Shown here: in pieces, positions 5,501 to 41,000 of the stretch
How positions within the stretch are numbered: the stretch's first letter is position 1
Layout of the letters: each line of letters starts with the position of its first letter
From: Candidatus Magasanikiibacteriota bacterium
GTDB lineage: Bacteria > Patescibacteriota > Patescibacteriia > Magasanikbacterales > GWA2-37-8
Assembly (NCBI GenBank): GCA_963802255.1
Contig: CAWDHY010000001.1
Location: 299,842 to 363,841 of the forward strand
Reading direction: 5' to 3'
Length of the DNA stretch: 64,000 bases
Made by a program: the position numbers and the translations under genes
The notes under the pieces: generated by a model
What the model was told of the DNA's origin: nothing
Seen by the model: the letters and a program-made list of their open reading frames with translations, nothing else
Database searches by the model: none

Positions 5501-8500
5501 TTTTGCTAATGACATTAACACTTGTACGCATGACGGTGCCGCTCTTATTATGGCGGATGGAAGTTATGAATTGGATACGGGTTCCGGAGGAGAATTTGGC
5601 GACACAAGTTTTATGCAGATGATACCATCAGCATTGCGTTGGGCTGACAACACATGGTATCAAGTCGTCTTAAAAAAGGGCGTTAAATCTCTGCCGAGCC
5701 AGTATGAATACAAAGGTGAGATTAAGACATTACCTGCTCAAAATTTAACCACTAATAATCCTTGTGGTACAGATACTGCGTATTGTTTTATTTTCAAGAC
5801 TGATACGCGTGATTGTAAATTAAATAAAGTGGTTGTTACTCCTTACACATACTGGACTTCCATTTTAGAGTCGCCAATTAAGTACAGAACTATAAAAAGT
5901 AATGCCGACGATTTAGGTTCAACATTATATTACAAGGGTAATGGTTTAAGCGACCAGCATTGTATCATGATGGATATGAGGAGTTTTAATTGGAGTTGGG
6001 ATACACAGCGCCCTCCATATTCAATGATTTATGGCACGAGCACTTTACAAAAATCGCAGGCCACGGCATTAGCAAATACTGTAGCGGTTGGGCTTGCAGA
6101 TCCGGAAAACGCAGTGATGATAAGAGCGACTGCAAGTAGGGGAGGTATTGGAAGTAGCGTGGAGCCACCATTGGTTGATCCGACCCTTTTTCCAATGGCA
6201 GGTTGGTGGAATTTTGATGAAGGTGGTACAGAAATAACTGATATTAGTGGAAATGGACATAACGGAGTAATTCAAGGTCCGGCAACATTTGTGCCGGGAA
6301 AAATTGGTTCCGCAATATATTTAAATGGTTCCGGTAATTATGTTCCGTTGGAGAGCCCATTGTCTTTACCGGGCGGGCTATCATCCCGCACAATGTGCGC
6401 TTGGGGAAAACCGGATGATATTTCCGGCGGATGGCGCTGGATGATGGCGTATGGCAGGGGAGCGTCCGGACAAGCAATGTTTATCGGAATGAACGGTACT
6501 AGTCTTGACGGCGGTGCGTATGGCGGCGGATATGACATCATTGTTAATGATTTTTGGTCGGCCGGTGTTTGGCGGCACATATGTTTAACCTATAATGGCA
6601 GTGTTGCAAGATTATACGCTGATGGGTCTGAAATTGGCCACTTAAATGTTGGTTGGAATTTACAATTACAAAAAGCATATATCGGCGCCCAAGTACATTC
6701 GAGTGCCAATGAGTTTTGGAAAGGCGCGATTGATGATTTAAGAATTTTTGACTACGCGTTGTCCCAGGAAGAAATCGTTGCTCTATATGAATATGGAAAT
6801 AGCGGTGGGATTTTGGGCGGAGGGGGCAGTGTCGAATATGAAGAAAAAATGGGACAGAGTCCTCTCACAATTGATTTATCTCGTCCGAAAGTTGTGGATT
6901 ACTGGCCGAAATGTTTAGAGGCTTGCACCAATGCTGAAATTGGAGCCAAATTTAATGTGATAATGGCCAACGCAAATATAGAAAATGCGGTAAAACTTGT
7001 CCGTTGTTTGGATGAAAATTGCGCGTCAACTGTTCCGGTTGGGGAGATAAGCAAAATTATTGATTCTGCCGACCGTCGTTATATTAAATTAAATTTTGGC
7101 ATATTGGGTGGAGAACTGGCGACTGATACTGTTTACGCCGTAACTTTATCAACCACCGGTACAAGTACGGCAATATCAAATTATCAACTTTGGTCGGGAG
7201 CAAGCGCAACGGATGAATACGCTAAGGCAAAACCAATGCAAGAGGAATTTATCTGGCGTTTTAAAACAAAAAAAGAAAAGTGTGTTTTAGACAAGGTCAA
7301 TATTATCCCGGCTCTCTTCCAGGCGGTTTTCATTAACGACAGACATGTATATTCTTCTGAAGCTCGTTCCGCCCCGGACGCATGTGATCCAAAGGGACAG
7401 AAGCTGGATACATGGACAATTGATTGGGACTGGTCTTCTTCTGCTTCGGATGTTGCCACGGTTCAAGAATTTAAAACAAAAGGAAGAAGTCCTGTGTGTA
7501 ATAATAACTGTGTAAGAAAAGGAAGTGATATAACTTCTGACGCTTTGACGTTTGAACCGCTGTGCGGGAATGCAAGCGTGGAGGCAGGTGAAGATTGCGA
7601 CCCGCCATTTATCAGCGTTGTCGGAAGTGTCACTACCACTGCTTGTACATTAAATTGTTTACGACCGGGCAATGAGTTTACGGCGACTTGTGGTAATGGC
7701 ACAGTAGAACCTCTTCTCGGTGAAGAATGTGATCCGGCTGACGATGCTACAAAAGTCGGTTGTTCAAAAAATTGTTTGCATATCGGTTCAGTGGCGGCTA
7801 CCGGGGCTGAAGATGTAACAGCCTCAATTTGCGGTAATGGGAAAATTGGTATGGGTGAAGAGTGTGATTTAGGCATGGCGGTTGATTATACAAAATCAAC
7901 GTCTTCATTATATTGCTCTCCGTATTGCTTGCATCTTGGAACAAGTTTATCTTCCGGATGGTGCGCGAATAATACCAGCACTCTATTTGGCCAGGTTGAA
8001 TATTTATCCGCTTGCGCAAAATCAAAAAGCCAATGCGGAGATGGTATACGCGACCCGTCTGAAGACCCGGGCTGTGATTGCGGAGAGGGAAATGTGCCAA
8101 ATTCAAGCCACATGTGCGTTTGTAACGGTGTAATGATATCGGCTAACGACCTTGACCAATGTCTAAAAGTAAATCCCGCCTGCTCTGCAAAATGTCTCGG
8201 CAATTCTCGTTTGCTGGCTGAATGCAATCCGTTGTCTACTACTACTGTTGGTGGCATTACAGTTGTTCGCGCCACCGAAGGATGTGGTGACAATTCTCAA
8301 TATCAAGGGTCATCTTTAATGTATTCCGTACCATCCCTTTGCGGTGATGGTATTGTCGGAATTGGCGAGGAAAATGATTGTGAGTCAGGATTTTTATTTA
8401 CTCACTCGCTGACTGACCCATGGACACTCGCTACCGGCGTCGGCCTAGGCGCGGTGGTGACTTCGTCAAGCGGTATTCCTTCACAGGTAACCAATATTCA

Positions 8501-11500
8501 AGGAACCGGTTCGTCAACTGTTAACAGTAAAAATTATCAAAAATCCGGAACCGGGAAATTTGAAATTATTTGCGGGTACAGCACGGATATTGAATGCCAA
8601 GATTTACTCGGCGACGAATACGGTTTAGCGAGCAATTCTTGCTGTATGCCGCGGCCGTGGCTTATCAGTACGTATCCGGATAAAAATGATATAAATCCGC
8701 CGTATGATATTTGTCCCAACACATATATTGAAGCTAAATTTAATCATCTTATAGATGAAAACACACTGATAAATCAAATATATGTTGCTCGAGGCTACAC
8801 AACTCCTTCTTGTCCAACCGGCACAGTTGATGTAACACCGTTTGTGTCTGATTATGAAATTTTGGTCATTGATAAAGGGCCTTGGTACAAGCGTTTATGG
8901 CACGGCATTGTTAATTGGTTTGCCAGAATTTTCGGCGACGAAACATCTGCCGCGCCGATTGAAATTACCGCCACAAAATATTGTTCCGAAGGAGTTCTTC
9001 CGCCGGCAAAAGTTGCAGTTGAGGGATCAATGTCCGGCGCTAATACCACTTCCAGCGTAATGATACGCTTAAACACTCCGCTTGCCACTAGCACTGATTA
9101 TGTGGTTATTTTCCGGCCTGGTGTTAAAGACGTGCGAGGGGTAAGTGTTGCCACTTCAACACAATGGAAATTTATTACCGGTCCGAAAATATGTGAGTTA
9201 AATCGGGTGGCAATTAACCCGGACAATTATATGTTTAACCGATCCGGCAGTTCAAGCAGTTTTGTTGCCAGTTCAAGCGCTATAAACGGGCAGTCAATTC
9301 AGCCGGTAGAAGGATACAGATGGGAATATGAATGGAGCCCGATGCAAAGCGATGTGGTATCGTTAACCAACACCACGGACACAATAAATATAGTGACCGC
9401 AAAAAATAGAAACGGTGAGCTGGATCTTCTGGCAACAGCGAAATTTACGGAAAATTGGTTTTTCTTTGATTCGCCGTCGTTATCCGGTAAATCACGTATA
9501 GTTGTATTTCTGTGCGAAAATCCATGGCCGTCTTCTTCAACCATAGATTTTCCGTTTAAAGAAATTGAATACGATTTCACCACATATTATTGTATGGACA
9601 AAGGCAGTCCGGGATTTGCTGATGACATGCCTTACGTAACTTCTTCACGTGTGTGGATACAGGAAACGAATCCTTTTAAAAAGCGATATTTATTTACGAA
9701 TTCCGATAATAAAGATGCCATTGGCATGCAGGTGTTTTATAATCCGGAACATTTGTCTGTTAGCGAGTGGTATACCGCTCAGGGTTTTCGCGGGAATATG
9801 AATTCACTAAAAATAGACGGCTATGACGCGATAAGCGATGGAAATAATTATTATGTTGATGCTTTAAGCTTTTCCAATGCCAATAATATCTATTCAAATA
9901 TTTATCAATTCAGTATTAACAATGACGCCACTAATGATGGTAAGGAGATATTTAAACAGATGATGGAGAACATTAAATTTAACAGCGGATTAATTAATGA
10001 TAAATATTGCGCTGTCGGTTATGGTCCAATGGATACCGTTCGCTATGATATGGCCTGTGAAAGCGATTTGGATTGCCTCGCTAACATGGAAGCGTTTAAA
10101 AAAGTTTATCCAACTTCAACTTTAAGTGCTTATAATTGTTTAAATCAAAAAGATAAGTTGCAAAGAAATTATCAGCGGTTGAAAGATATGAGACAGGCGG
10201 TTTCAATAATAAATTATGGCAGAGGAGCGATTGCTGTTTTGCCGATGGATAGTGTGAATTATGGAAAAACGCCGGATATCACAAAAAAGGGAAATGACCT
10301 GACGATCACCGATTCAAACGGAATATCACTGGTCGGTGGCGCTTTAAAACTATCCGGCTCCGGCCGTTTAGAAACAGAGGCGTCTATAGGATTAATGGTC
10401 GGCTCAAAATCATTTACCGTGACCGGTAAAATAAATACAGTATTGGATGAAGCTACTCGTTTAATGCGAATTACTAATAGTACCGGCGATGGTATGAGTT
10501 TGGAACTATCTAATGAAGGGAAAATGACTGTGTGTAATGGTCCAGAAGTCGGTACTATGTGTATATCGCCGGCTAGCTGTTCAACCATGCCGTCATTAAA
10601 CGATGGATCTTGGCATAATTTTGCATTAGATTTTACTCAGTCATCACCTGATAAAATAAGGGTTTATATTGATGGAGAATTGGCCTGCAGCAGCACCGGA
10701 TCATTCCCCAGCATGCCATCATCAGCTAAATTAGTAATTGGTGGCTATTCTAGTGACAATATATTTGATGGTTCTATTGATGATCTACGAATTTATACAC
10801 GTGATTTGTCCGAAGACGAAATATCCGCCTTATACGCAAATAATTTACCATATAAAGGCAGTTATCCGACAATAAACGAAAATACATATCTTAATGGGCA
10901 GGCAATTAGCGTCTGGGATAATTCTTGGACACAGCTTGGGACGGAAGCGGGTATGTCATTACCGATTGATCCGATAAACAGGCTGGTGCAAAGCGGCACC
11001 TGTTTCCAAAAGACCGGTATTTCTTACAGTGCGTGTTACAAAGATTCAGATTGCGCCGTTATACCGCAACTTAGTAATAGACAAAGTTATTGGTCGGCTG
11101 ATTATGAAACGACCGATGAAGGTGTTTTGAAAAATAATGCTGCCATTGAGGGTTCTGTAGATTATGGCGATGGCAAAGGGCACGGCAAGGCCTTTGAATT
11201 TTCCGGTGATTCAACAGCAAAAGTCATGGCAGCGCATAATAATGCATATAATAGCAGTCAATTCACTGTTTCCGCCTGGATTTATCCGACAAAAAAGAAT
11301 ACGGCCACAATTATTAAACATGGAGGTACGGATGGTAATGGCATTAGCCAGGGTGGTTTTGCTCTTGAATATAGCGGTTTTTGGACCGGTGTCGTCGGCT
11401 CAAGCGTTGTCACCAGATTTAATAATGGAACAGTCAGGTTTGCTTTTTTCACCACATCAACATCAGAGACTAAATATTATTCTTTGGATTCAAACGGCAC

Positions 11501-13778
11501 GCCTTTAACTCTTAATCAGTGGCACCATATTTTGGTAAGATTTGATGGCAATGGCACTGTCTATATGTATATTGATGGCGTCAACCAGAATACGCAAATG
11601 AGATTGCCAAATGGCGCGCTGTTCACGATTGACCCGGGTGATCCGTTTCCACAGATGGCTGCTAATACCGGTAATATTGAAATTGGTCAAAGTTTTAACG
11701 GCAAGATTGATAATGTGGCATTTTATGATTCTTTATTAATAAATTACGATCCAAATAATGAGGTGAACAATTTATACAAAGGGCTATGCATATTACACGA
11801 TCCAACTACTGGCTGGAGTGCTGAAGATCGCCGGTTTAGCTTTGCCTGCAATACCACTTCATACGCATATAGATATCAATACGCGAGTTCAACAGGTGCG
11901 TTTTTGCTGCGGGCTAATATGGAAAAATTCGCGAATATCTGGCCAGGCAATATGAACACGTTTAACAATGACTTCTTCGGCGGTTATGTGGATATATCAA
12001 CCGGAGTTTGTGCCGGAAATAATGAAATTTCTTCGCCGTACAATTTAGTCTGCGGAGACGGTGTGCTTGGCGGAACGGAGACATGCGACCCGCCGGGAAA
12101 AGTTGAAATAAATTCGTCTCTTTGTCCGGTTGGTCAGGCAATTAAGAAAACATGTTCTAGTAACTGTACCTGGGGAGCAACAACGAATATTAATTGTTAT
12201 TTGGCCACTGGTGGTTCTTGTGGAGACGGCAAATTGCAGACAGCAGCAGGTGAGAAATGCGATGATGGAGCGTTGAATGGCCAGAGCGGGCGGTGCGCAA
12301 CTGACTGCCAAGGCACTGTAAATACTTGCGGTAATGGGACTCTTGATGTAAGCGAGTTTTGCGACACTGTAACGGCCACGGGACAGTGCGAATTTATGCC
12401 AGGTGTAGAGCGAGAAATTGATCCGAAAGGCGAACCAATGTTTTATTTTTTGGTGGATTTGACTGGGACGATGGGGAGTGCTTTTCCCGGCGCTCCGTCC
12501 CCGGGGACAAGAGTAGCTATGGTAAAGTATTCACTGCCTCTTATTGCTGAACGTTTTAGTAATCCTGATTCGCGAGCTAAAATAGGAATCGGATCATATA
12601 ATTGCCCCGTTAATTCTTTTCATAATAAAGATTGGCTGCCAGGTACTAAGGGATATTTCACGTCTTCTCAAGTTCAGACAGCTATTTCGACCATGGTTCA
12701 GCAAACTGGACAAAATACCGACAGCGTTTTTGACTGGTTCAGGTATACAATTTTACCGATACTAAAAAGCGGAGTAGACGATGGCAAACCAATTAACCTT
12801 GTTTATATTACCGATGGAGGCAAAGCGGGATCGTGCACGCCTTATGGCGCTTTGTGTCCTACTGATAAAATTGCCGCTTTGTACAATGACTTAGGAGTTG
12901 TTACGCATATTATCGGAGTTGGTAATGTAGTGGAATGTGACCGTGAAATTATGGCAAACGCGGGACATGGACAATATCTTCAAATTACTGAGGGCGCTGA
13001 CTCATTAGCTGAGGCAATGATTGAAATATATAAAAAACCCTGCGAACAATATTCGCAGTATAACGGTTATTCCTGTCGTTGGGACTGTAAAGGACCTGGC
13101 GGATATTGTGGTGATGGAATTTTGCAATTTGAAAGTGGCGAGCAATGTGAAGCTGACCAGTCGTGTACAGTGTCTCCGGGCGGTGAATCTGGAATGCAGA
13201 AATGCGAAAGTTGCCAGTTGGGTGAGTGTGAAGCGATTGTTGAAGTTGAAGTTCCGGGACAGTGCGGGAATGATATTGTAGAGGAAGAAGAGGCCTGTGA
13301 TCGCGGTGATATGAATGGTGAGGCTTGTAATCCTTTATATCCGCAAAAGAAATGCACTTATTGTTCGTATGATTGCCGAAATGTAATTACTGTTGATAAT
13401 CTTTGTGGAAATGGTTTTCTGGACTCAGGAGAAGTGTGCGACCCTGAACATTGGTTAACCAATGGTTATAAACGTCAATATTTTATGGCTGATCATTGCG
13501 TACCGTGTAAAAATGATTGTTCGGGCTGGGATTATTCCATTGCCGAAGATAACACTCCGCAAAGTAATTGTGCGGATATTTGGGGATATTGCGGCAATGG
13601 CATAAAGGAATCGGTTTATTATGGGGAAATTTTGACGCCTTTTGAAAGTTGCGATGGAACCGATGGAGTAAATAATTGTCCTGAATGCTCGGAAACTTCC
13701 CCGGCTACTCCATTTAAGAAATGTAATTTTAATTGTTCATGTGGTTGTTCCGCTTTTATGCCTTTCTTTTCAATGTAA
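2586..13778 (+). CDS. giant (3730 aa) surface adhesin-like protein: T4SS-pilin-like N-module, poly-Gly linker, IPT/TIG repeats, three LamG/concanavalin-like domains, ~12 CGDG/EECD Cys-rich repeats, vWA domain
   Basis: Single uninterrupted ORF of 11.2 kb starting 10 nt after the previous stop. The N-module LGLPDTDIRVIAARIIRVALGFLGIIALVLILYAGFVWMTAGGNEENIQKAKRILMNAVIGLIIILSAYAIV is followed by G14. TIG-like motifs include SGQFFG, IGENFG, ITGKNFG. LamG signatures WNFDEGGTEITDISGNGHNG...DDLRIF, ...DDLRIY and KIDNVAFYD are present. Cys-rich repeats take the form CGNGTVEPLLGEECD. A vWA/MIDAS-like FYFLVDLTGTMGS...ITDGG is present. Confidence 0.7.
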   Translation: MMQKLNWKKLLLVTLFLAGIGVFLLAAVSLAQTNVPDLGLEPVGQELGLPDTDIRVIAARIIRVALGFLGIIALVLILYAGFVWMTAGGNEENIQKAKRILMNAVIGLIIILSAYAIVSFVLSSLLSATTGGDGGGGGGGGGGGGFSKVFYITSMPGNDFGCGARNLHPVIRFNKPVDLTTIENNLVLRKKIDASPANGEWVFQVVNSVPITSAVVFNPVGDCGIEGHNDCLDANSTYQIFFANATNIKSQSPDILNLNCNVGDYKNQCKNDPSVEFATGDGVDVENPTITIINPFDGQSFGQGQSVSVEVIFTDNFGLQDLALFINSSSVPVDTASITGCQKSGTSTLVWPTGSSPTGTYALTALATDFAANYSTDIRNISLVPLHCFDSLLNFGETIAGPPACGDGCGNCSGEPCTQNSDCASGWCEDGICIDKIRINLFDPLDGAASSTYVTISGQFFGDDGGHVYFTKQGGGWTEAFIVSCGAGIDNWTPYQLVVKVPPNADDGPIKVAHASAPSDGSDDITRRYTDITDDTSWGYYKNFNVNDVIKPGLCALIPSYGPPYSSTTLIGENFGATNNSAQDKVMFSSSTALIRDWASRTVTARVPALGTGPVAVKILNEGEESNAVRFDVRESLDNDTPVIESINPEDGAKGEYITITGKNFGNNVGKVLFKFEGEGEAKYGSFDFPADCEGSTWSNNQIIVKFPEDEPVVVDHDYSVQIQRSSDAKIGPIGAYFQLHSGNPAPGICKLSPSSGPVPFNPSSSMKIYGEYYQRGGSTSTPYFWQLEASTTTIEDRVEATDIIQESDQQAELRPPEDSQTGPVVMHRASENKTGNSLPFTVYNCVENNNICYSPGTRCCTSGADAGACKLEFDLCAGQTRSTGYMWRFSTGPFPPVPKVMERCDAGTDAGENLPSPSPDIRWTGLGNFDHFNACRTSLVNIEFTMKMDPATINATNVQIFKCVSSSVTTTFANDINTCTHDGAALIMADGSYELDTGSGGEFGDTSFMQMIPSALRWADNTWYQVVLKKGVKSLPSQYEYKGEIKTLPAQNLTTNNPCGTDTAYCFIFKTDTRDCKLNKVVVTPYTYWTSILESPIKYRTIKSNADDLGSTLYYKGNGLSDQHCIMMDMRSFNWSWDTQRPPYSMIYGTSTLQKSQATALANTVAVGLADPENAVMIRATASRGGIGSSVEPPLVDPTLFPMAGWWNFDEGGTEITDISGNGHNGVIQGPATFVPGKIGSAIYLNGSGNYVPLESPLSLPGGLSSRTMCAWGKPDDISGGWRWMMAYGRGASGQAMFIGMNGTSLDGGAYGGGYDIIVNDFWSAGVWRHICLTYNGSVARLYADGSEIGHLNVGWNLQLQKAYIGAQVHSSANEFWKGAIDDLRIFDYALSQEEIVALYEYGNSGGILGGGGSVEYEEKMGQSPLTIDLSRPKVVDYWPKCLEACTNAEIGAKFNVIMANANIENAVKLVRCLDENCASTVPVGEISKIIDSADRRYIKLNFGILGGELATDTVYAVTLSTTGTSTAISNYQLWSGASATDEYAKAKPMQEEFIWRFKTKKEKCVLDKVNIIPALFQAVFINDRHVYSSEARSAPDACDPKGQKLDTWTIDWDWSSSASDVATVQEFKTKGRSPVCNNNCVRKGSDITSDALTFEPLCGNASVEAGEDCDPPFISVVGSVTTTACTLNCLRPGNEFTATCGNGTVEPLLGEECDPADDATKVGCSKNCLHIGSVAATGAEDVTASICGNGKIGMGEECDLGMAVDYTKSTSSLYCSPYCLHLGTSLSSGWCANNTSTLFGQVEYLSACAKSKSQCGDGIRDPSEDPGCDCGEGNVPNSSHMCVCNGVMISANDLDQCLKVNPACSAKCLGNSRLLAECNPLSTTTVGGITVVRATEGCGDNSQYQGSSLMYSVPSLCGDGIVGIGEENDCESGFLFTHSLTDPWTLATGVGLGAVVTSSSGIPSQVTNIQGTGSSTVNSKNYQKSGTGKFEIICGYSTDIECQDLLGDEYGLASNSCCMPRPWLISTYPDKNDINPPYDICPNTYIEAKFNHLIDENTLINQIYVARGYTTPSCPTGTVDVTPFVSDYEILVIDKGPWYKRLWHGIVNWFARIFGDETSAAPIEITATKYCSEGVLPPAKVAVEGSMSGANTTSSVMIRLNTPLATSTDYVVIFRPGVKDVRGVSVATSTQWKFITGPKICELNRVAINPDNYMFNRSGSSSSFVASSSAINGQSIQPVEGYRWEYEWSPMQSDVVSLTNTTDTINIVTAKNRNGELDLLATAKFTENWFFFDSPSLSGKSRIVVFLCENPWPSSSTIDFPFKEIEYDFTTYYCMDKGSPGFADDMPYVTSSRVWIQETNPFKKRYLFTNSDNKDAIGMQVFYNPEHLSVSEWYTAQGFRGNMNSLKIDGYDAISDGNNYYVDALSFSNANNIYSNIYQFSINNDATNDGKEIFKQMMENIKFNSGLINDKYCAVGYGPMDTVRYDMACESDLDCLANMEAFKKVYPTSTLSAYNCLNQKDKLQRNYQRLKDMRQAVSIINYGRGAIAVLPMDSVNYGKTPDITKKGNDLTITDSNGISLVGGALKLSGSGRLETEASIGLMVGSKSFTVTGKINTVLDEATRLMRITNSTGDGMSLELSNEGKMTVCNGPEVGTMCISPASCSTMPSLNDGSWHNFALDFTQSSPDKIRVYIDGELACSSTGSFPSMPSSAKLVIGGYSSDNIFDGSIDDLRIYTRDLSEDEISALYANNLPYKGSYPTINENTYLNGQAISVWDNSWTQLGTEAGMSLPIDPINRLVQSGTCFQKTGISYSACYKDSDCAVIPQLSNRQSYWSADYETTDEGVLKNNAAIEGSVDYGDGKGHGKAFEFSGDSTAKVMAAHNNAYNSSQFTVSAWIYPTKKNTATIIKHGGTDGNGISQGGFALEYSGFWTGVVGSSVVTRFNNGTVRFAFFTTSTSETKYYSLDSNGTPLTLNQWHHILVRFDGNGTVYMYIDGVNQNTQMRLPNGALFTIDPGDPFPQMAANTGNIEIGQSFNGKIDNVAFYDSLLINYDPNNEVNNLYKGLCILHDPTTGWSAEDRRFSFACNTTSYAYRYQYASSTGAFLLRANMEKFANIWPGNMNTFNNDFFGGYVDISTGVCAGNNEISSPYNLVCGDGVLGGTETCDPPGKVEINSSLCPVGQAIKKTCSSNCTWGATTNINCYLATGGSCGDGKLQTAAGEKCDDGALNGQSGRCATDCQGTVNTCGNGTLDVSEFCDTVTATGQCEFMPGVEREIDPKGEPMFYFLVDLTGTMGSAFPGAPSPGTRVAMVKYSLPLIAERFSNPDSRAKIGIGSYNCPVNSFHNKDWLPGTKGYFTSSQVQTAISTMVQQTGQNTDSVFDWFRYTILPILKSGVDDGKPINLVYITDGGKAGSCTPYGALCPTDKIAALYNDLGVVTHIIGVGNVVECDREIMANAGHGQYLQITEGADSLAEAMIEIYKKPCEQYSQYNGYSCRWDCKGPGGYCGDGILQFESGEQCEADQSCTVSPGGESGMQKCESCQLGECEAIVEVEVPGQCGNDIVEEEEACDRGDMNGEACNPLYPQKKCTYCSYDCRNVITVDNLCGNGFLDSGEVCDPEHWLTNGYKRQYFMADHCVPCKNDCSGWDYSIAEDNTPQSNCADIWGYCGNGIKESVYYGEILTPFESCDGTDGVNNCPECSETSPATPFKKCNFNCSCGCSAFMPFFSM
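2978..3020 (+). repeat. (GGC/GGA/GGT)n simple repeat encoding a 14-residue poly-Gly linker
   Basis: ggcggtgatggcggcggcggaggcggtggcggcggcggcggagga read directly. The protein reads GGDGGGGGGGGGGGGG. Confidence 0.6.
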
Positions 13779-14618: not shown

Positions 14619-15839
14619 ATGTTTGGAAGTAAGGAGAGTAAAAATTTAGAAATGCCGGAAACGAATATACCGGTGGTTACAATGCCGCGTGATTTTTATG
14701 CAGGCGCGAATCCAACGGTTAAATTCAAAGAAGTTGAACAGACGGTAGATTTGAAAAAATTTACCGGTGTAAAAGAGCATGAAAAAAAGGCCTTTCAATC
14801 GGCAACGGCTGCTCAAGGAGCGGCAAACTTACTTTCTAAACGTTGGATATGGGTTGTGGGGAGTACAGTCTTGTTTTTGTTGTTTGCCGGAGGAGCGGGC
14901 ATTTATTACTGGTGGCAAGGGCGGGCTAAAATTGTTAGTCCGACACCTGTGTTACCGCCTATTACTGCTCCTGCAGTCGTAGAAGAGCCTGTGACGCCTG
15001 TTGTAACCGAACCGGCTACAACAACGCCGGAGCCTGAAATTCCGACAGTAACAGAGCCAGGCCTGGAATTTCCATCAAAATTATTAGCTGAAAGCGTTGA
15101 TTTTGACTCAGATAAAATCAGCGACATGGCGGAAGAGCTTTTTGGGACAGATCCTTCAAATGCTGACTCCGATAATGACTCTTATCAGGATGGTCACGAA
15201 ATATATTATCTTTACAATCCGAATGGAGAAGAGCCAAAAACCTTGATTGACTCCGGTTATGTCAGGAATTATATTAATTCGCGTTTCGGATATGAGTTGT
15301 ATTATCCGGCAAATTGGGCGATTGGCGCGGTTGATGTTGAAGGCAGACAGGTTCTTTTCAGTACACTAACCGGAGAAAATATTGAAGCGAGAGTGTTTGA
15401 TTTGGCTCCCGGCCAGACGTTTGGTGAATGGTTTGCATTCAATGCCTCGCAGGAAAACGCCGGTGATTATTCAGAGATGTCAAGCAGGTTCAATGCGAAC
15501 GCGATAATGCGCAACGACGGTTTGGTATACATTTTTTATGACAATCAGCGTGTTATTACCTTGCTCTATCATACCACCGGTTCAAACACAGTTAATTATA
15601 AAGTTGTATTACAGGTAATGGCGCGTAGTTTAAAAATTGGCGAACCGATTTCGCCTGCCATGAGGCCGGCGGAAGAGCTGGAAATGATGCCTGAAGATAA
15701 ATTTCCGGAAGAAACAGCAACCGAAAATGTTGAAGCTGAGGAGCCGATAGGAGCAGTGGGAGATGAAGAAGAAATGACGGTTCCCGCGGAAAGTGATGTG
15801 ATGACGACCACAGAAGAATCACCGGAGCCGGAATTATGA
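14619..15839 (+). CDS. single-pass membrane protein, Pro/Thr/Glu-rich ectodomain (paralog-like of previous gene)
   Basis: TM segment WIWVVGSTVLFLLFAGGAGIYYWW. It shares the motif NADSDNDSYQDGHE with the previous protein. It begins 3 nt after the previous stop and overlaps ybeY through ATGA. Confidence 0.45.
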   Translation: MFGSKESKNLEMPETNIPVVTMPRDFYAGANPTVKFKEVEQTVDLKKFTGVKEHEKKAFQSATAAQGAANLLSKRWIWVVGSTVLFLLFAGGAGIYYWWQGRAKIVSPTPVLPPITAPAVVEEPVTPVVTEPATTTPEPEIPTVTEPGLEFPSKLLAESVDFDSDKISDMAEELFGTDPSNADSDNDSYQDGHEIYYLYNPNGEEPKTLIDSGYVRNYINSRFGYELYYPANWAIGAVDVEGRQVLFSTLTGENIEARVFDLAPGQTFGEWFAFNASQENAGDYSEMSSRFNANAIMRNDGLVYIFYDNQRVITLLYHTTGSNTVNYKVVLQVMARSLKIGEPISPAMRPAEELEMMPEDKFPEETATENVEAEEPIGAVGDEEEMTVPAESDVMTTTEESPEPEL

Positions 15840-21863: not shown

Positions 21864-23015
21864 TTATTTATATAGAGGAAATTTTTTAACCAGTTCGCCA
21901 ACTTTTAAACGGATAATATTCAGCCTTTCAGTATCTTGAAAATGTGTAATTGTTTCATTAATCCATTCTGCGATTTGGCGCATTTCATTTTCTTTCATTC
22001 CTCTTGTGGTGAGCGCCGGTGTACCGAGCCGGATGCCGGACGGATCCATTGGGGAGCGCGGATCATTTGGCACCATATTTTTATTTACAGTAATACCGGC
22101 TTCATCCAAAGCGATTTGCGCTTCTTTCCCTGAAATATTTTTATTGGTTAAGTCAATCAACAATAAATGGTTGTCAGTCTGCCCGAAACAAATATTGAAA
22201 TCAAGTTTTTTTAATCCTTCTTCCAAAACCTTTGCGTTTTTTATTACTTGTGACGCATATTCTTTAAATTCCGGTTCCAGAGCTTCTTTAAACGCGACCG
22301 CTTTTGCGGCGATATTATTTTCATGCGGTCCGCCCTGAAAACCCGGGAATACGGACTTATCAATCGCTTTGGCGAATTTTTGTTTGCACATTATCATTCC
22401 ACCGCGTGGTCCGCGCAAAGTTTTGTGGGTAGTGGTAGTTACGATATCAAAAATAGGCACGGGGTTTTCCATTACTTCACCGGCAATAAGCCCGGCGATA
22501 TGAGCGATATCTGCCATGGTAACTGCGCCAACCTCGTCAGCAATTTCTTTAATTTTTTTCCAATCAATAATGCGCGAGTAGGCGCTGTATCCGGCCAAAA
22601 TTATTTTTGGCTTGTGTTCAATTGCTGTCGCGCGTAATTCATCATAGTTGATTAAGCCATCCGTATCGGTACCGTAACGGATAAAATTATACAGCTTGGC
22701 CATATAGGTGACCGGATGCCCGTGCGTTAAATGTCCGCCGTGCGCCAGGTCCATGCCAAGAACAGTATCGCCAGGCTGAAGCAGAGCAAAATATACGGCG
22801 ATATTAGCCGGCGCGCCGGATAACGGTTGGACGTTCACGTGTTCGGCGCCGAACAGTTCTTTAGCGCGTTCAATCGCCAGTGTCTCTACCTCGTCGATGT
22901 ATTCACAGCCCCCATAATATCGCTTGCCAGGATAACCTTCGGAATATTTATTGGTCGCGATTGAACCGAGTGCTTCCAAAACCGCCGGTGAAACAAAATT
23001 TTCCGACGGAATCAT
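21864..23015 (-). CDS. glyA: serine hydroxymethyltransferase, main body. The N-terminal 29 codons lie upstream (to 23101) in another frame; apparent frameshift in an A7 tract.
   Basis: [38 protein letters not shown]...[12 protein letters not shown] is a classic SHMT. See the finding on the frameshift at 23037-23043. Confidence 0.9.
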
Positions 23016-23105
23016 CTCCAGTCCGTTTTCCTGGCGTTTTTTTCTTTTTCAATGGCGACATAAACATTCGGGTCAAATTGTTCAAGTTTTTCTTTGTGCA
23101 TATTA

Positions 23106-24686
23106 TTAGATTTTTTTAATCATGTAGGTATTTTGCAATTTGTAACCGAGTTTTCTGTAATAACCCCGTACGCCAACGCCGGAAATCACCGCTATTATAT
23201 CTGCCTTGGCTTTGATGGCCAATTTTTCCGCTCCTTTTATTAATTTTACCCCCATACCCTTGTGTTGTGAAGCAATGGCATTTTTAGTGCCGATTTTTAG
23301 CATCTGGCCGTAGGTATGAAGTTCACGGATAAAGGCCGGGTATAGACCGTTTTTATCAATACGCAAACGGCAAAAAGCATAAACCACCTGTCGTTTGGCA
23401 TCTTCAAAACTTAAAAAATATTCAATTCCGCCCGAGGCATTGTATTTATCAATAAATAATTTCGGACGCGATAATTTAATATTGGCATGTCCGACTTCAC
23501 GGCAACGCAAACAATTGCAGTGTAAACCGCGGCGTAGCATTTCCGCCTGAATCACTTGGCGCAAATTTGTAACTCTGTTTCCGGCAACAATGTGATGCCC
23601 GGGAATGTCGCGGATAAGACGCGAAATTCGAACATAGCGCGGGATGGCCGCTTTGAAGTTTATAAGAATATCAATTAATTTTTTATCGTTGTATGGCTTA
23701 TATTTTCCGGATTTAACCCAGCGGTAAAGCGGAGATTTTTTTACTACCGTGCACGGATAAATTTTTATCATGTCAGGACGGTAATCAGGATTATCAAAAA
23801 TTCCCGCTAACATTTTTGCATCTTTGCCCGGCGTTGATCCGGGAAGCTGTGGCATAAGATGAAAATCAACTTTAAATCCGAATTTTTTTAAAAGTCCGGT
23901 GGCGCGTATAGTTTCCGCTGTATCGTGTCCGCGCTTTACTAATTTTAAAATTTTGTCATCAGTGGTTTGGACGCCAAGTTCAATTCTGGTACAGCCAAGC
24001 TCGCGCATAATCAAAATATTTTTTTCAGTAATATGATCCGGCCGTGTTTCCAAAGTTAGCCCGATAATTCTGTGTTTTGCAGTTTCATTTTTCTTTTGGG
24101 CTGACTGTAAAATTTTTCTAATTTTTTCTACGCCTCCTTTTTTTTCTCCTTTAATGCCATTGGCCGCTTCAAAACATCGCAATACAAACCAATATTGATA
24201 CTCAAGCGGATACGCATTCCATGTCCCGCCTTTTATAATCAGTTCAATTTTATCGGTTGGGTGTCCGTTTTCGGCCAATGTTTTAATACGCTCATGTACT
24301 TGCCGGTAAGGGTCAAATTGTAAAGATGATGCCCGCGCTGCCGCCGGTTCGTCGCTGATATAACTTTTCGGCATTTCTTTTTCATCCGGACAATAAATGC
24401 ACCGGCCCGGGCATTCGTGCGGCTCAGTCAGAACGGTCACGATCGCGACGCCGGAAAGTGTCCGGACCGCGCGTTTGGTTAGTAAAGTTTCCAATAAAAA
24501 AGATTTTTTTATCTTGCCTTTAGCGAGCATGGCGTGATATACTCGGAGCAAGTCAGTTTTGCGGGATAAATCTTCTTTGCTTTTCGCACTGCGCATTTCC
24601 GAACGCAAAACAGACGAAAATTCATCAGATGTTTTCGGGACTTTTTTCAGTAATTTATAAATTATTTTTTCGCTCAGGTCAATCAT
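23106..24686 (-). CDS. elp3: Elp3-family radical-SAM / GNAT tRNA U34 carboxymethyl-modification enzyme homolog
   Basis: Radical-SAM Elp3 core HECPGRCIYCPDEKEMPKSYISDEPAAARA...DPYRQ...IKGGTW. C-terminal GNAT QHKGMGVKLIKGAEKLA...VISGVGVRGYYRKLGYKL. The ORF is open up to a TTG at 24797; the ATG at 24686 or 24596 is more plausible because the extension overlaps the divergent gene. Confidence 0.85.
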   Translation of the reverse strand: MIDLSEKIIYKLLKKVPKTSDEFSSVLRSEMRSAKSKEDLSRKTDLLRVYHAMLAKGKIKKSFLLETLLTKRAVRTLSGVAIVTVLTEPHECPGRCIYCPDEKEMPKSYISDEPAAARASSLQFDPYRQVHERIKTLAENGHPTDKIELIIKGGTWNAYPLEYQYWFVLRCFEAANGIKGEKKGGVEKIRKILQSAQKKNETAKHRIIGLTLETRPDHITEKNILIMRELGCTRIELGVQTTDDKILKLVKRGHDTAETIRATGLLKKFGFKVDFHLMPQLPGSTPGKDAKMLAGIFDNPDYRPDMIKIYPCTVVKKSPLYRWVKSGKYKPYNDKKLIDILINFKAAIPRYVRISRLIRDIPGHHIVAGNRVTNLRQVIQAEMLRRGLHCNCLRCREVGHANIKLSRPKLFIDKYNASGGIEYFLSFEDAKRQVVYAFCRLRIDKNGLYPAFIRELHTYGQMLKIGTKNAIASQHKGMGVKLIKGAEKLAIKAKADIIAVISGVGVRGYYRKLGYKLQNTYMIKKI

Positions 24687-25412
24687 ATGGATAAGCGTAA
24701 AGCACAAGAAATTGTACGTCAAACACGCCAATTTTACAATACCGCCGCCAAGGAGTGGGATATTAGCCGAGGCGCTCCCACTCGCATTAAAAAACAAATT
24801 ATCCGGCCGGTTAAAAAGGGGATGCGAGTCTTAGATTTAGGTTGTGGTAACGGGCTAATGGCTAATACTGTAATGAGTCTCGGCGGTCAGTATGTTGGCG
24901 CGGATATTTCCGGGAAACTTATCGCGCTGTGTAAAAAACGATATGCTTCATATATCAAAACCAAGCAGGCGGAATTTGTAACAGCCGATGCCGCCAAGTT
25001 GCCGTTCAAAAAAAATTCATTTGATTTTGCTGTTTCTTTTGCCGTGATGCACCACATTCCTTCGGCTGAAATGAGAGTGAAATTTTTACGGGAATTGTAT
25101 CGCGTGATGAAACCCGGGGCGACGGCAAAAATTGACAATTGGAATTTGCTTGAGAATTGGAGCTGTAAAAAATATTATATCAATCGCCAGTTGAAAAATT
25201 TTCCACCCTCTCATGATTATGGTGATGTCTATATTCCATGGAAGGCGACCGGCGGAAAAACAATACCGCGCTACATTCATATTTTTTCAGATGCAGAATT
25301 AAAATCGGTTGCCAAATTAGCCGGATTCAAAAAAATAAAAATTGAATATTTCAACCGCGCCGGAATAAAAACAAAAAATGGTGAAGCGCAGATACTTACT
25401 GTAAAGAAATAA
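24687..25412 (+). CDS. class I SAM-dependent methyltransferase, Trm9-like
   Basis: Motif I VLDLGCGNG. Trm9-type post-II motif FDFAVSFAVMHHIPSAEMRVKFLRELYRVMKPGATAKIDNW (compare Trm9 FDFAISIAVVHH...RR...GG...W). Confidence 0.65.
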   Translation: MDKRKAQEIVRQTRQFYNTAAKEWDISRGAPTRIKKQIIRPVKKGMRVLDLGCGNGLMANTVMSLGGQYVGADISGKLIALCKKRYASYIKTKQAEFVTADAAKLPFKKNSFDFAVSFAVMHHIPSAEMRVKFLRELYRVMKPGATAKIDNWNLLENWSCKKYYINRQLKNFPPSHDYGDVYIPWKATGGKTIPRYIHIFSDAELKSVAKLAGFKKIKIEYFNRAGIKTKNGEAQILTVKK

Positions 25413-25415
25413 AAA

Positions 25416-25444
25416 CATCCGCCACTGTTGGCGGATGTTTTTTT
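25416..25444. terminator. bidirectional intrinsic terminator
   Basis: catccgccactgttggcggatg hairpin followed by ttttttt, between convergent genes. Confidence 0.7.
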
Positions 25445-29541: not shown

Positions 29542-29615
29542 GCACGCCTAGCTCAGCTGGTTAGAGCACCTCGTTTACACCGAGGGGGTCAGGGGTTCGA
29601 ATCCCTTGGCGTGCA
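29542..29615 (+). tRNA. tRNA-Val (anticodon TAC)
   Basis: gcacgcc acceptor arm, agctcagctggttagagc D-arm, anticodon loop tTTACAc, T-arm ggggttcgaatccc, 3' ggcgtgc + a. No encoded CCA. Confidence 0.85.
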
Positions 29616-29746
29616 CTTAATGCGATCCAATTGTTTGGATCGCAAGTGGATTCGAACGCCGGAGCGATGTTTGGCGAGTTAGAGGACGAGCCAAACCGCG
29701 AGGCGGTGGCCAGGCAAAATTTTTGGAAGAAAATTTTAGCCGAGGC

Positions 29747-33357: not shown

Positions 33358-35103
33358 TTAACCCTTCACTTCCGGCCTGACGTCAGAGCCACGGTCGTAA
33401 TTGGTCAGTGTGTTATCAACAGCGCCTCGTGATAAATTCAATTCTTTTCCAACAGTATCGTCTTTCGCATTGTATGAAGCACTCTTAATAAGTGTAATTT
33501 TTTTGCCGATTTGCGAAGCACTAGGATTTACCGCAACTTCAAAATATAGCCCGATATCGCCGGATGCAGGCACCAGATTATAGCTCCAGCTTACATTATT
33601 GCCGGTTTGATCATATTTAAGCTCCGGCCCGATAGTAACGCTTTGTTTTCCGGTGAACTCAACGCCGTCGGCAAGTTTCAGGTTAAATGAATTTCCGGCA
33701 ATCGCGTTTGTTCCATTGGATATTTCCACGAATATCCAATATTTTGTAATTTCCCCCACAGTAGGCGGTAATGGACCGCGACCCAATTGGTCTCCGTCGT
33801 TTGTGTAATATACAGGGTGAATATTCCAGCTTATCTGCGTTGCCAACGGTAATCTGACGGTTTCACTGCCCTCAACGATAAATTTTTGGTCAGGCACGTC
33901 GGCGAGTTCGGCTTCTGATTGAATTTTTATTTCCAGCTGTGTCAAGCCGGCGGCTTTAAAAAATGACAAAAGTTTTAAGTTAATCACAAATTCATCGGAA
34001 CTTCCGGATGACCCGTCGGCTAAAGCGGTGCGCGTTTTTTTGTCCGCGATTAAACTGTTGCCTTCCACAGTCAAATTATTTGCGTTTGCCGTTGCTTTTA
34101 AATCAACGATACCCGGCGTCGGGGTGATTCGCAGGCGGATATTTTTGAGTGAATAGGCGCTGGAATTGTTCCAATATACGCGTACCGGTAATGTATCGCC
34201 GCCATCGGCAAATGCTTTTTGTTCTAAAAGATGTACACCGCTTTTTATTTCAGGATAAAAAACTGATAATTTTCTTTCCAATGTGGCTTGTCGTATCGGT
34301 GTGTTATTGACCGTGACCAATATATCAAAACTTTCTGTGTATTCGCCCGAGTTGTCCGGCGCAATTATTACCCCGGCAATGGCTTTTGTTTCACCGGGCG
34401 CGAGATAAATATTTTTTAAAACATTTTCATCGGCAAATTTATTTTCCGCTGGAGGTACGATTGATATGTTTTGTATCGGTTGGGCGCCGTTATTTTTTAA
34501 AATAAGATTAACAGGGAGTTCGCGTCCGGGAAAAGAAGTGCTTGCCATCGTAATCTCAGCGCTGAGAATAGTGCCCGCTGGTCTGAATAAAGCGGCGCCG
34601 ATTTTTTGTTCCTTTGTTTTTGAACCTTCCGGCAAGTAACTGAGATAGGCGGTAATTTTCTCATCCATATTCGGTTCGGCAAAAATCAATCCATATATTT
34701 CCACTTGTCCGGCACCGCCCGCTTCAATTTTATCTAAATTGAATGTTGAGTTAGATGAAAAAATATCTTCCGAGGTTTTTGATCTGTCCACCACAAATCC
34801 CACAGGCAGGTGTACTCCCATGACCGCCTGATTCAAGTTCTTCTTGCTTCTGTTTTTGTAATCAATAGTTAAACGAATTTCGTCTCCGCTTTGCAGACGT
34901 TCAGTACCAAAAGAAAAAGTTAAATCAATTTCACTTGTTATGGTCGGTTTCCAGAAAAAAAAGAAAATACTCGAACAAAGCATTACAAGTGCCAGACCGA
35001 GAAGGGCTAAATCAAAAACAAACAGTTTTTTAGCGTGTTTGTAAATTCCGTGATAACGCTTGTGATAATGCGAATGTAAAAATTTATATATAGTTTTCAT
35101 CAT
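33358..35103 (-). CDS. membrane-anchored large extracytoplasmic protein (hypothetical surface protein)
   Basis: N-terminal TM LFVFDLALLGLALVMLCSSIFFFFW, then a 500-aa beta-rich region. It lies immediately downstream of the HTH gene on the same strand. Confidence 0.45.
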   Translation of the reverse strand: MMKTIYKFLHSHYHKRYHGIYKHAKKLFVFDLALLGLALVMLCSSIFFFFWKPTITSEIDLTFSFGTERLQSGDEIRLTIDYKNRSKKNLNQAVMGVHLPVGFVVDRSKTSEDIFSSNSTFNLDKIEAGGAGQVEIYGLIFAEPNMDEKITAYLSYLPEGSKTKEQKIGAALFRPAGTILSAEITMASTSFPGRELPVNLILKNNGAQPIQNISIVPPAENKFADENVLKNIYLAPGETKAIAGVIIAPDNSGEYTESFDILVTVNNTPIRQATLERKLSVFYPEIKSGVHLLEQKAFADGGDTLPVRVYWNNSSAYSLKNIRLRITPTPGIVDLKATANANNLTVEGNSLIADKKTRTALADGSSGSSDEFVINLKLLSFFKAAGLTQLEIKIQSEAELADVPDQKFIVEGSETVRLPLATQISWNIHPVYYTNDGDQLGRGPLPPTVGEITKYWIFVEISNGTNAIAGNSFNLKLADGVEFTGKQSVTIGPELKYDQTGNNVSWSYNLVPASGDIGLYFEVAVNPSASQIGKKITLIKSASYNAKDDTVGKELNLSRGAVDNTLTNYDRGSDVRPEVKG

Positions 35104-38098: not shown

Positions 38099-41000
38099 AT
38101 GCGCAACAGAGTAGGGTATATATTATTCATTATGTACAACGTTATCAAGAGAGCTTTCACTTTCAGCGTTGTTGCCACGACCATGATGTGGTCGGTCGGC
38201 GTTGCAGCTTTGATCCCGTCTGTGGCTCAGGGCGCGACTTGTCCGACATTGGCATCTGGTGACATGATTAAAGTGGTCGGCAAAGCCGCCATTTATTCTG
38301 TCAACAACGATTTGAAAGTTTTATATTTCCCTTCCGGTGACGAATTCAAGTCATGGAGACCGACCTATGGTGGTTATATTTCCATCGATCAGGCCTGTTT
38401 CGATTCCTTGAGCGTTCCGTCAACCTATCCGGGTGGCGTGAACTATCACCCAGGTTCTTATCTCGTAAAGCGTCCGTCTTCCGACCAGCTTTATGTTGTC
38501 CTTCCAGGCAACAGCTTGTCAAAGATTGACACAACTGTGGCAAACACTCTTTACGGCACATCCGCCTTTACCGACGGTGTTGGCGCAAAAGTGATGACTG
38601 TCGCAGATACTTTCTGGCCGCATTATGTTTATCGCGGTGCAGATATTTCTACCGTTAAAGCGCATCCGGGCATGCTGGTCAAAGTGAGCGGCATTACCTA
38701 TTTGATTGATGCGGATAGCAAATTGCGCGAGGTTACAACCACTGGTTTTACCGCCAATGGTTTCCAGGAGAGATTCGTGCGCACTGTTACAACTGATGCA
38801 ATTTCCGGTTTAGCCACTGGCGACACCATTAATGCAGAAGTTCCGTCTTTGACCGATAAAACTCAAAGCGGCGGTGTGGTTATCCCGAGTTCATCCGGTA
38901 ATGTGACTGTGGCCTTGGCCGCTTCCACTCCGGGCGCAACTGATATCCCGGTAAACGCTTCCGTTGAATTCTTAAAGCTTACTGTTACCAACACAGGCTC
39001 AACTGATGCCAGCATGACTGGTATCAAATTCTCAGCCTATGGTTTGGGTAATGCTTCTGATATCGACGAAGTAAGCGTATACAACAATAATCAACGCTAT
39101 GGCAATGCCAAAGATGTTGATTCCAATAAGCAAGCTCAAATCAACTTCACAACGGCTATGCCGTTGGCAAAAGGTGCTACTGAGACATTGGTTATTAAAG
39201 CCAAAGTTACAGGTACCGGTCATTATGCTTTGGGTGTGGCCGCTGCGGCCGACATCATGGGCGTGACTGCTGCCGGCAGTTATCCGATTGTGGGTAACAC
39301 CATGAGTGGCGTTAATGTTGCAGTTGGTCAGCTTACTATCGATAACAATGGCACTTTGGCTTCTGTTAATCTCGGAGACATGGCTGCCACTGTTGCCAAA
39401 TTCAAAGTCACCAATGATAATGTGGAAGATGTTTCTTTGAAGAGCATCACTTTAAAGCGTGATTCTGCCAGCACTGCTAATGACAGCGCGCTGGAGAACA
39501 TGAAACTTTATGTTGATGGTACCGAAGTTGCTTCCGCCCCTGCCATTGTTGGCAAGTATGTTTCCTTCACTTTGTATTCTCCTTTCACCATCCTTAAAAG
39601 TGGTGTGAAGAGTTTCACTGTGAAAGGTGATGTGGTTGATGGAGCTGGTAAAATAATCAGATTGATTCTTGATGCCAATTCCGATGTTTCAGCCATTGGC
39701 TCACATTATGGTTTTTCATCCATCATAGTCAATAACATGACCGGTGCTAATTTATCTATCAATGCCGGTACTGTGACTGTGGAAAAACTTAATGCTGCCA
39801 ATACAAAATTGGTTATTAATACCAATGATGTAGAAATGGGTACCCTTAAAATCACCGCTAACAGTGGTAAGACTGTTGAGCTCTCAAAGACGAGACTCAC
39901 AATCGACTCTGTGAACGATGACAATATCGGTGCTGATTTAGCATTTGCTGAAATCGAGAACTTGAAACTCTTTGACAAATACAACAACACCACTTATGAC
40001 CTGACTTATGTTGCAGGCTCAGATACTGGTGCCGCTAAGGTGTATCAGAATACTGATAGTATCACCTTGGCAAGCGGTGTCACCCACGAACTCGTGGTAC
40101 GCGCCAATGTCAAAGCCGCTCCAACAGCGAATAACGGTGATTACACTGTAAAAATCGCTGATGCCGCCGGTGGTGACTTGGTCTTAAAAGAGACAGGTGA
40201 CGACACTACTATCACTGACATTACTCCGAATTCTGTGTCGTTAAACAAAGTTTCTATTGAAAGCGCAACTGTGACTTTCTCCAAGAATGCTTTGTCTGCC
40301 GCTTATACCGCTGTTGTTGGTTCAACCAACCACACATTGCTAAGCTTCAACGCAAAAGCCGGTCAAGCCAGTCAAGTTAAGATGACTGAAATTAAATTTA
40401 AGGATCAGGTGGCGGATAATAATCCGACCGTTGGTGGCGTCCAAGTAGTGGACAAAAACATGGTTTCAGAGTTCAAGCTCTATAAGGGCGGGAACCTCAT
40501 CAGAACTGTGTCTGCCAACCAGATGGCCAGCGAAGAAATCGCCTTTACTGATCTCTCTGAATTTATTGACCCGAATGCGACTGCGTCTTATATACTTCAG
40601 ACCACATTGGTTAATGATTCCAACAATGATACCGCTACCATGCAATTCTACATTAGCGGCTATTCTGTTGAGGAGACCAATAAAGGTACTGCGGTTTATG
40701 ACGCTGTTGCTGAAAATGTACTCGCGAACGGTATTATTGCCGCTGGTGAGACTGGTTACACTTCATTGTTATCAGCTCGCGTTGTTACCATAGTTGGTTT
40801 TGGTTCATTAAATGTCTCGGTTGATAATACTGTCAACCTGACAAAATATGATACCTATCAACTTGGTGGTTCTACCGATATTCCGGTCGCTTCCTTCAAG
40901 TTGCGCGCCGCGAATGAAGAGGTGAAGGTTACTTCATTAAAAGTTGGCGTCTCTGTTGCCGATATTTCGAGCAGCATCAGCAAGCTAGCTCTTTATGAAG

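Follow-up and report, generated by a model that had tools for sequence, protein, structure and literature searches.

A Patescibacteria Elp3 gene paired head to head with a Trm9-like methyltransferase gene suggests a module for tRNA wobble-uridine modification

In a 64,000-nucleotide stretch of DNA from a Candidatus Magasanikiibacteriota bacterium (GenBank assembly GCA_963802255.1, contig CAWDHY010000001.1, positions 299,842 to 363,841; referred to as the window and numbered from its first letter), we found a gene for Elp3, a protein with a radical S-adenosylmethionine (SAM) domain and an acetyltransferase domain, whose start codon abuts that of a divergent gene for a Trm9-like methyltransferase. 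The pairing of the two genes is reciprocal and deeply conserved. Since Elp3 lies nearly always head to head with this methyltransferase in bacteria of the candidate phyla radiation (CPR), the arrangement suggests that these bacteria make 5-methoxycarbonylmethyluridine (mcm5U), and we favor, with moderate confidence, the reading that the two genes form a module of archaeal/eukaryotic type, which would make 5-carboxymethyluridine (cm5U) and then mcm5U at uridine 34 (U34) of tRNA. What is new is the conserved and largely unannotated partner, together with the prediction of mcm5U34 in a large bacterial radiation. The features on which the argument turns are the following:

23106 to 24686, minus strand: Elp3 coding sequence, 526 amino acids plus stop; a radical-SAM domain, then a GNAT/KAT domain

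24687 to 25412, plus strand: Trm9-like class I SAM-dependent methyltransferase, 241 amino acids plus stop; Pfam Methyltransf_11, 1.3e-23

24684 to 24689, no strand assigned: head-to-head junction CATATG, in which both start codons abut with zero intergenic DNA

By every sequence test available, the Elp3 gene is intact and genuine. The NCBIfam ELP3 model TIGR01211 gives the protein 548 bits (cut-off 350; E = 2e-164), with residues 34-526 matching positions 18-522 of the 522 in the model (residue numbers refer to the 526-amino-acid form, starting at ATG 24686). Alignments to PDB entries for Elp3 of Methanocaldococcus infernus, Dehalococcoides mccartyi, yeast and human/mouse span residues 64-525; the best match among solved structures is 6iad of M. 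infernus (5e-126, 424 bits), with 5l7j of D. mccartyi (3.5e-114, 385 bits), 8ptx (2.5e-90) and the human, mouse and yeast proteins (about 1e-89) below it. Pfam recognizes Radical_SAM at 92-285 (1.3e-16) and Radical_SAM_C at 304-383. The GNAT domain of the window protein is not called by the generic Pfam models, and some homologs do get such a call; we accept the acetyltransferase domain despite this silence because TIGR01211 and the PDB alignments both cross the whole domain to the C-terminus (residue 525). The start of the gene is almost certainly ATG 24686 (MIDLSEK...) and not TTG 24797, from which the longest minus-strand frame in the open reading frame (ORF) listing runs to 23106 (563 amino acids), since (i) NCBI/ENA already holds an identical 526-amino-acid protein (P0001, on a 628-kb contig), (ii) 16 homologs begin at the same aligned position as ATG 24686, and (iii) the extension of 111 nt, or 37 codons, would be antisense into the adjoining methyltransferase gene. 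An earlier sequence-only reading of this DNA, which had placed the gene at 23106-24797, was therefore right about its end and 111 nt too far upstream at its start.

The residues expected of a working Elp3 were checked in an alignment of 17 CPR sequences (A3), in which three stretches deserve listing:

24390 to 24413, minus strand: radical-SAM [4Fe-4S] motif CPGRCIYC with C92, C96 and C99 (Cx3Cx2C), invariant in the 17 CPR Elp3 sequences

23250 to 23267, minus strand: acetyl-CoA-binding motif QHKGMG of the KAT domain (residues 474-479), which aligns with QHMGYG of M. infernus Elp3 (MinElp3)

24477 to 24686, minus strand: N-terminal extension (residues 1-70), net basic, with 16 K/R versus 9 D/E

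In MinElp3 the counterpart of the cluster motif CPGRCIYC is CPHGKCIFC, and the two align once a gap of one residue is allowed. Residues E213, K308 and Y310, which correspond to MinElp3 E207, K302 and Y304 when counted along the 6iad alignment (chain index plus 51), are likewise invariant across the 17 homologs, and mutation of these residues in MinElp3 abolishes activity (PMC13315578). Invariance extends to Q474, H475, G477 and G479 of the acetyl-CoA-binding motif, to the tyrosine pair YY at 509-510 and to the cysteine cluster CNCLRC at 390-395, so that all catalytic residues checked are present in the window protein. The basic N-terminal extension is probably a tRNA-binding region; in archaeal and eukaryotic Elp3, such an extension reportedly contributes to recognition of the substrate (PMC6367351). 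All five motifs that the sequence-only reading had quoted are found in the translation (GRCIYCP at residue 94, SYISDEPAAARA at 108, DPYRQ at 125, IKGGTW at 151 and VISGVGVRGYYRKLGYKL at 500), and its identification of the protein as Elp3 is borne out by the model score, the alignment with solved Elp3 structures and the conserved catalytic residues.

Older database names for homologs (P0030; PDB titles) include "Histone acetyltransferase", and weak matches to the radical-SAM core of other families exist (MnmL/YtqA, 78.6 bits; HemW, 46 bits), which would fit a protein that is no tRNA enzyme at all and acts instead as a protein (histone-like) acetyltransferase or as a radical-SAM enzyme of the HemN/HemW or MnmL/YtqA type. 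When the profile comparison proposed in the sequence-only reading was run, the ELP3 model passed, whereas HemN/HemW/HemZ-type and MnmL/YtqA models reached 15-79 bits, far under their cut-offs (MnmL/YtqA, 78.6 versus 180; HemW, 46 versus 205; HemZ, 40 versus 321), and their matches are partial, covering only residues ~186-380. Moreover, bacterial, archaeal and eukaryotic Elp3 hydrolyse acetyl-CoA only upon tRNA and not with histone or tubulin peptides (PMC6367351), and archaeal Elp3 makes cm5U in vitro (PMC13315578). We hold a role outside tRNA modification to be very improbable.

The pairing itself was quantified in a scan that took a single genome for each GTDB species, and the counts below refer to the 80 Elp3 loci listed from it, 72 of which are informative in that the sequence upstream of Elp3 extends for 600 nt or more. 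The methyltransferase has a homolog in 63 of these 72 loci; it is upstream and divergent in 62 and lies directly adjacent (at most 400 nt from the inferred Elp3 start) in 48, with a median identity of the methyltransferase at linked loci of only 32%. The linkage holds in reverse: when the profile of the methyltransferase family was searched against metagenome contigs, an adjacent divergent Elp3 gene was present in 55 of 67 informative loci, and Elp3 lay within 4 kb in four more. Other neighbors of Elp3 in the window are far less well kept (glyA at 21 of the 80 loci, folD at 12 and pyk at 7), and clustering of the ORFs at the 80 loci, in which a third partner (Trm112, Kti12, thiolase) was sought, gave no neighbor of comparable conservation. 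The methyltransferase gene lay outside the coordinates of the sequence-only reading and was missed there.

The start codons are often as close as they are in the window. Zero-gap CATATG junctions occur in 10 further loci (L002, L003, L006, L007, L008, L011, L029, L046, L056 and L074), a 2-nt overlap of the starts (CATG) in five (L019, L025, L038, L039 and L050), and a gap of 2-4 nt in four, giving about 20 loci from various CPR lineages in which the starts abut or are no more than 4 nt apart and the flanking sequence is otherwise unrelated. Where the starts abut or overlap, each promoter and ribosome-binding region must therefore lie within the coding sequence of the partner, or the mRNAs must be leaderless. 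These observations also bear on the idea that the adjacency is inherited synteny with no functional meaning, in which case the annotation of Elp3 would be the only informative result. CPR genomes are compact and close relatives do retain some gene order, as with glyA, pyk and nrdR, which remain beside Elp3 in Magasanikbacteria-like loci. These other neighbors decay fast, however, and the methyltransferase stays in 63 of the 72 loci across Magasanik-, Buchanan-, Moran-, Falkow-, Gribaldo- and Beckwithbacteria and Paceibacterota, with abutting or near-abutting starts in unrelated flanks, so that we consider mere inheritance of gene order improbable.

Two other genes, both absent from the window, recur near Elp3 in the scanned genomes. 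The first encodes a NUDIX hydrolase of about 132 amino acids (Pfam, 5.7e-15) and is present in 28 Elp3 loci (e.g., L070:9836-10234 on the plus strand, L014:9388-9798, L018:9652-10140 and L046:5355-5750); in about 20 loci, mostly of the Moranbacteria type, it is co-directional with Elp3 and no more than about 400 nt downstream, and it may be a third partner of the module. RlmN, an RNA radical-SAM enzyme, is encoded near Elp3 in 15 loci.

The label "Trm9-like" for the methyltransferase is based on the sequence profile, functional residues, the linkage to Elp3 and the labels given independently by annotation pipelines. Homologs are named "class I SAM-dependent methyltransferase" by NCBI, and "TRM9" or "alkB family protein 8" (ALKBH8), in many cases also "UbiE", by JGI. 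The support from solved structures is mixed. When the family profile was compared with 177,635 PDB sequences, Trm9 of Yarrowia (YlTrm9, chain 5cm2_Z) came first (6e-31, 110.6 bits, versus 98.8 for the next); this chain ranks first although it is without the N-terminal helix. An alignment of 62 family members (A1) gives the consensus YxxIAxxFSxTRxxxW ... SIAVFHHxPS ... TVWNLW ... PW ... RYxHxF ... NIxxIAxK, and motif I, LDLGCGNG, is invariant in all 62. An AlphaFold2 model, built from an alignment of 39 database homologs, has a Rossmann-type fold with a confidence score (pLDDT) of 93.4, and the fold is no part of the basis for the label. The residues required for the activity of yeast Trm9 (ScTrm9) have been mapped by mutagenesis (Létoquart et al., PMC4678810), and their equivalents in the 62 sequences are as follows:

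ScTrm9 Y18: equivalent in 61 of 62

ScTrm9 R29: equivalent in 62 of 62; R28 in the window protein

ScTrm9 D72, the SAM-binding acidic residue: equivalent in 62 of 62; given as D73 in the family

ScTrm9 H115: equivalent in 54 of 62

ScTrm9 H116: equivalent in 62 of 62; H123 in the window protein

ScTrm9 W145: equivalent in 62 of 62; W152 in the window protein

ScTrm9 W168: aromatic in 62 of 62; W185 in the window protein

ScTrm9 R241: equivalent in 55 of 62; R195 in the window protein

ScTrm9 Y243: variable, equivalent in 20 of 62; I197 in the window protein

ScTrm9 N271: equivalent in 58 of 62; Q235 in the window protein

Several observations weigh against a cm5U-to-mcm5U module: (i) the window methyltransferase deviates at two of the mapped positions, Y243 (I197) and N271 (Q235); (ii) the best PDB match of the single sequence is an uncharacterised Methanosarcina mazei methyltransferase, 3sm3, which is without the HH motif, and Trm9 is second; (iii) eukaryotic and archaeal Trm9 need Trm112, and a motif scan found no Trm112-like zinc-ribbon ORF in the 64-kb window (~10% of the genome), nor did all-versus-all clustering of ORFs find one among the conserved neighbors of the 80 loci; (iv) nine informative loci gave no methyltransferase match, and six of these are CPR loci (the outgroups Leptolinea, Woesearchaeota and Thermoplasmata make up the rest); and (v) the one bacterial Elp3 that has been assayed, from D. 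mccartyi, was weakly active in vitro (PMC7663514).

The first and third of these points would also be accounted for if Elp3 made cm5U34 and the methyltransferase acted elsewhere, whether at a different site in tRNA or rRNA, on a protein or on a small molecule, the end product then being cm5U, 5-carbamoylmethyluridine (ncm5U) or another derivative. The class I fold is generic, many homologs carry the JGI name "UbiE", and no NCBIfam model claims the window protein (the best, CpaM, scores 64 bits against a cut-off of 180), all of which would suit such a role. Against it stand the reciprocal pairing with Elp3, at ~82-88% over lineages whose proteins are only ~30% identical, the top PDB match of the family profile, which is Trm9, and the invariance or near-invariance of the Trm9 residues that bind the cm5U carboxylate and U34 (Y18, R29, H116, W145 and R241). 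We regard an unrelated target of the methyltransferase as unlikely, though as an alternative to be taken seriously.

If the Elp3/Trm9-like module works as its relatives do, the stand-alone Elp3 would bind tRNA, probably aided by its basic N-terminus, and this binding would trigger hydrolysis of acetyl-CoA in the GNAT/KAT domain. The acetate would pass via an internal tunnel to the radical-SAM site, where a 5'-deoxyadenosyl radical generated from the [4Fe-4S] cluster would activate its methyl group, which would then be added to C5 of U34 to form cm5U; the Trm9-like enzyme, using SAM, would then O-methylate the cm5U carboxyl to yield mcm5U34. Both chemical steps are modeled by homology, the first on Elp3 of M. 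infernus and the second on Trm9 of yeast and Haloferax; which tRNAs serve as substrates, that the shared start region co-regulates the two genes and that the methyltransferase needs no Trm112 are further inferences. Haloferax Trm9-Trm112 makes mcm5U, as does yeast Trm9-Trm112, and in Sulfolobus solfataricus the genes for Elp3 and Trm9 lie clustered (PMC6144793, PMC2584109). A broader proposal, which we put forward tentatively and consider doubtful as it stands, is that Patescibacteria as a group make mcm5U34 with a self-sufficient Elp3 and a Trm112-independent Trm9-like enzyme expressed head to head, possibly in place of MnmE/MnmG. If true, it would establish a first mcm5U pathway in bacteria and add to the archaeal-like traits of CPR translation. 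The pair offers small stand-alone enzymes with an archaeal-type N-terminus for expression and assay, and a methyltransferase that acts without Trm112 would help to explain why Trm9 needs it elsewhere.

Comparison with characterized systems places the window Elp3 close to the stand-alone archaeal enzyme of M. infernus (PDB 6IA6/6IA8/6IAD/6IAZ), with which it shares the radical-SAM plus KAT architecture, the tunnel residues, the QHxGxG motif, a C-x-C-x2-C cluster (CRCIRC there, CNCLRC in the window) and an N-terminal extension before the catalytic core. The two differ in the [4Fe-4S] motif, which is Cx4Cx2C in M. infernus and Cx3Cx2C here, in the N-terminal 60 residues, which cannot be aligned, in the variable loop insertions of the CPR homologs and in the bacterial host of the window gene. 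D. mccartyi Elp3 (PDB 5L7J/5L7L) is likewise bacterial and stand-alone and has the same two-domain core; it lacks the basic N-terminus, aligning only from window residue 71, and has been portrayed as a bacterial rarity and a weakly active enzyme. At the one Chloroflexota locus sampled (L071) there is no Trm9-like neighbor within 8 kb of Elp3. The CPR methyltransferase shares its class I SAM fold with Trm9/ALKBH8 (Yarrowia Trm9-Trm112, PDB 5CM2; Haloferax HvoTrm9), and its family keeps the N-terminal YxxIAxxFSxTR helix, the HH motif and equivalents of W145, W168, R241 and N271. Linkage to Elp3 is common to this family and to Trm9 of S. solfataricus, whereas identity to Trm9 is only ~25-29% and the CPR gene is bacterial and head to head with Elp3, with abutting starts. 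MnmE/MnmG, which make 5-carboxymethylaminomethyluridine (cmnm5U34), and CmoM, which makes 5-methoxycarbonylmethoxyuridine (mcmo5U34), have the same target, C5 of U34, and belong to unrelated families with unrelated chemistry; CmoM is a Methyltransf_11 enzyme that esterifies a wobble-uridine carboxyl, and its model gives the window methyltransferase 30 bits where 366 are required. The ORFs scanned in the window, which is ~10% of the genome, included neither MnmE nor MnmG.

Elp3 of this kind is common in CPR bacteria. About 75 of the 80 listed loci belong to Patescibacteria, assigned by record title or close similarity, and they come from Magasanik-, Buchanan-, Falkow-, Moran-, Gribaldo-, Beckwith-, Peri- and Gracilibacteria and Paceibacterota; the remainder are mostly one Leptolinea locus and two archaeal loci. 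The sequence-only reading had called Elp3 rare in bacteria, which holds for cultured bacteria and fails for Patescibacteria, with at least ~75 genomes in one scan. A protein search with the window Elp3 gave at least 7,854 matches at E <= 1e-20 among 8,000 scored candidates; the best 120 are 54-84% identical to it and include proteins from Patescibacteria, Magasanikbacteria and related metagenome-assembled genomes that carry the NCBI product name Elp3. The window protein is thus an ordinary member of a known family, its close homologs being named Elp3 by both the NCBI and the JGI pipelines. In the specialist literature, bacterial Elp3 figures as an oddity of Dehalococcoides, and it is noted there that none of the xcm5U derivatives had ever been shown in a bacterium (PMC7663514); a 2026 paper places Elp3 in "numerous bacteria". 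Our literature searches found nothing linking Elp3 or Trm9 with CPR/Patescibacteria, and a search on MnmE/MnmG in CPR found nothing relevant. Eleven of the loci that carry the CPR-type Elp3/methyltransferase pair (L003, L006, L009, L011, L016, L017, L026, L027, L077, L032 and L064) have record titles reading "uncultured Gammaproteobacteria bacterium" or "Candidatus Pacearchaeota archaeon", which are probably taxonomic mislabels in the deposited records, because identities of 45-62% and shared synteny tie these loci to those of CPR type.

Downstream of Elp3, the window carries a third gene that we place outside the module:

21864 to 23101, minus strand: glyA (serine hydroxymethyltransferase), 4 nt downstream of Elp3, frameshifted near 23035-23041

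The sequence-only reading had pointed out that glyA lies on the same strand across a 4-nt gap, and this is correct: the gap reads TAA-TAAT-ATG, with the glyA ATG at 23101. The frameshift had gone unnoticed. Within an A-run, 7 A are present where 8 would hold the frame; 29 N-terminal codons are followed by a stop (23030-23101), the ORF resumes at MIPSEN (23015), and relatives are intact and read straight through. Either glyA is a pseudogene or the break reflects a sequencing error in the homopolymer. A functional link of Elp3 with glyA or folD was considered and rejected, since the adjacency is lineage-specific synteny, as the locus counts given above indicate, and glyA lies directly downstream of Elp3 in 9 of 70 informative loci. 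The gene ligA (NAD-dependent DNA ligase; 59038-61075, plus strand) also appears frameshifted, with a junction near 60700-60730: the ORF at 59038-60729 encodes the adenylation and OB domains and the first HhH, and an overlapping ORF at 60683-61075 encodes the rest of HHH_2 and the BRCT domain. Two broken essential genes within 64 kb point to assembly errors and not to decay.

Two noncoding features flank or overlap the pair:

24711 to 24739, minus strand: promoter-like TTGTAA-17-TACAAT, which lies within the methyltransferase gene and precedes the Elp3 ATG by ~25 nt; 9 of 12 consensus positions, a pattern match only

25411 to 25442, no strand assigned: perfect 14-bp hairpin with T-runs on both strands, between the convergent genes for the methyltransferase and a GT4 glycosyltransferase

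The hairpin is likely a bidirectional intrinsic terminator. Leaderless transcription of Elp3 from TTGACG-17-TACGCT-7-ATG was also considered and set aside as speculation, as this pattern matches at 8 of 12 positions and falls under the scan threshold.

Elsewhere in the window, the sole tRNA gene is tRNA-Val(UAC) at 29542-29616 on the plus strand, ~5 kb from Elp3; it encodes a U34 tRNA and is possibly a substrate of Elp3. Five long ORFs of 406-1,246 amino acids gave no Pfam match at E <= 1e-5 (33358-35103, minus strand; 38099-41839, 43387-45366, 49110-52364 and 14619-15839, plus strand). Two giant proteins are encoded on the plus strand at 428-2575 (715 amino acids) and 2586-13778 (3,730 amino acids), each with an N-terminal domain like that of type IV secretion system pilins followed by immunoglobulin-like domains, to which the larger adds TIG and laminin-G/concanavalin-like domains; both look like the giant adhesins or surface proteins that CPR episymbionts typically have.

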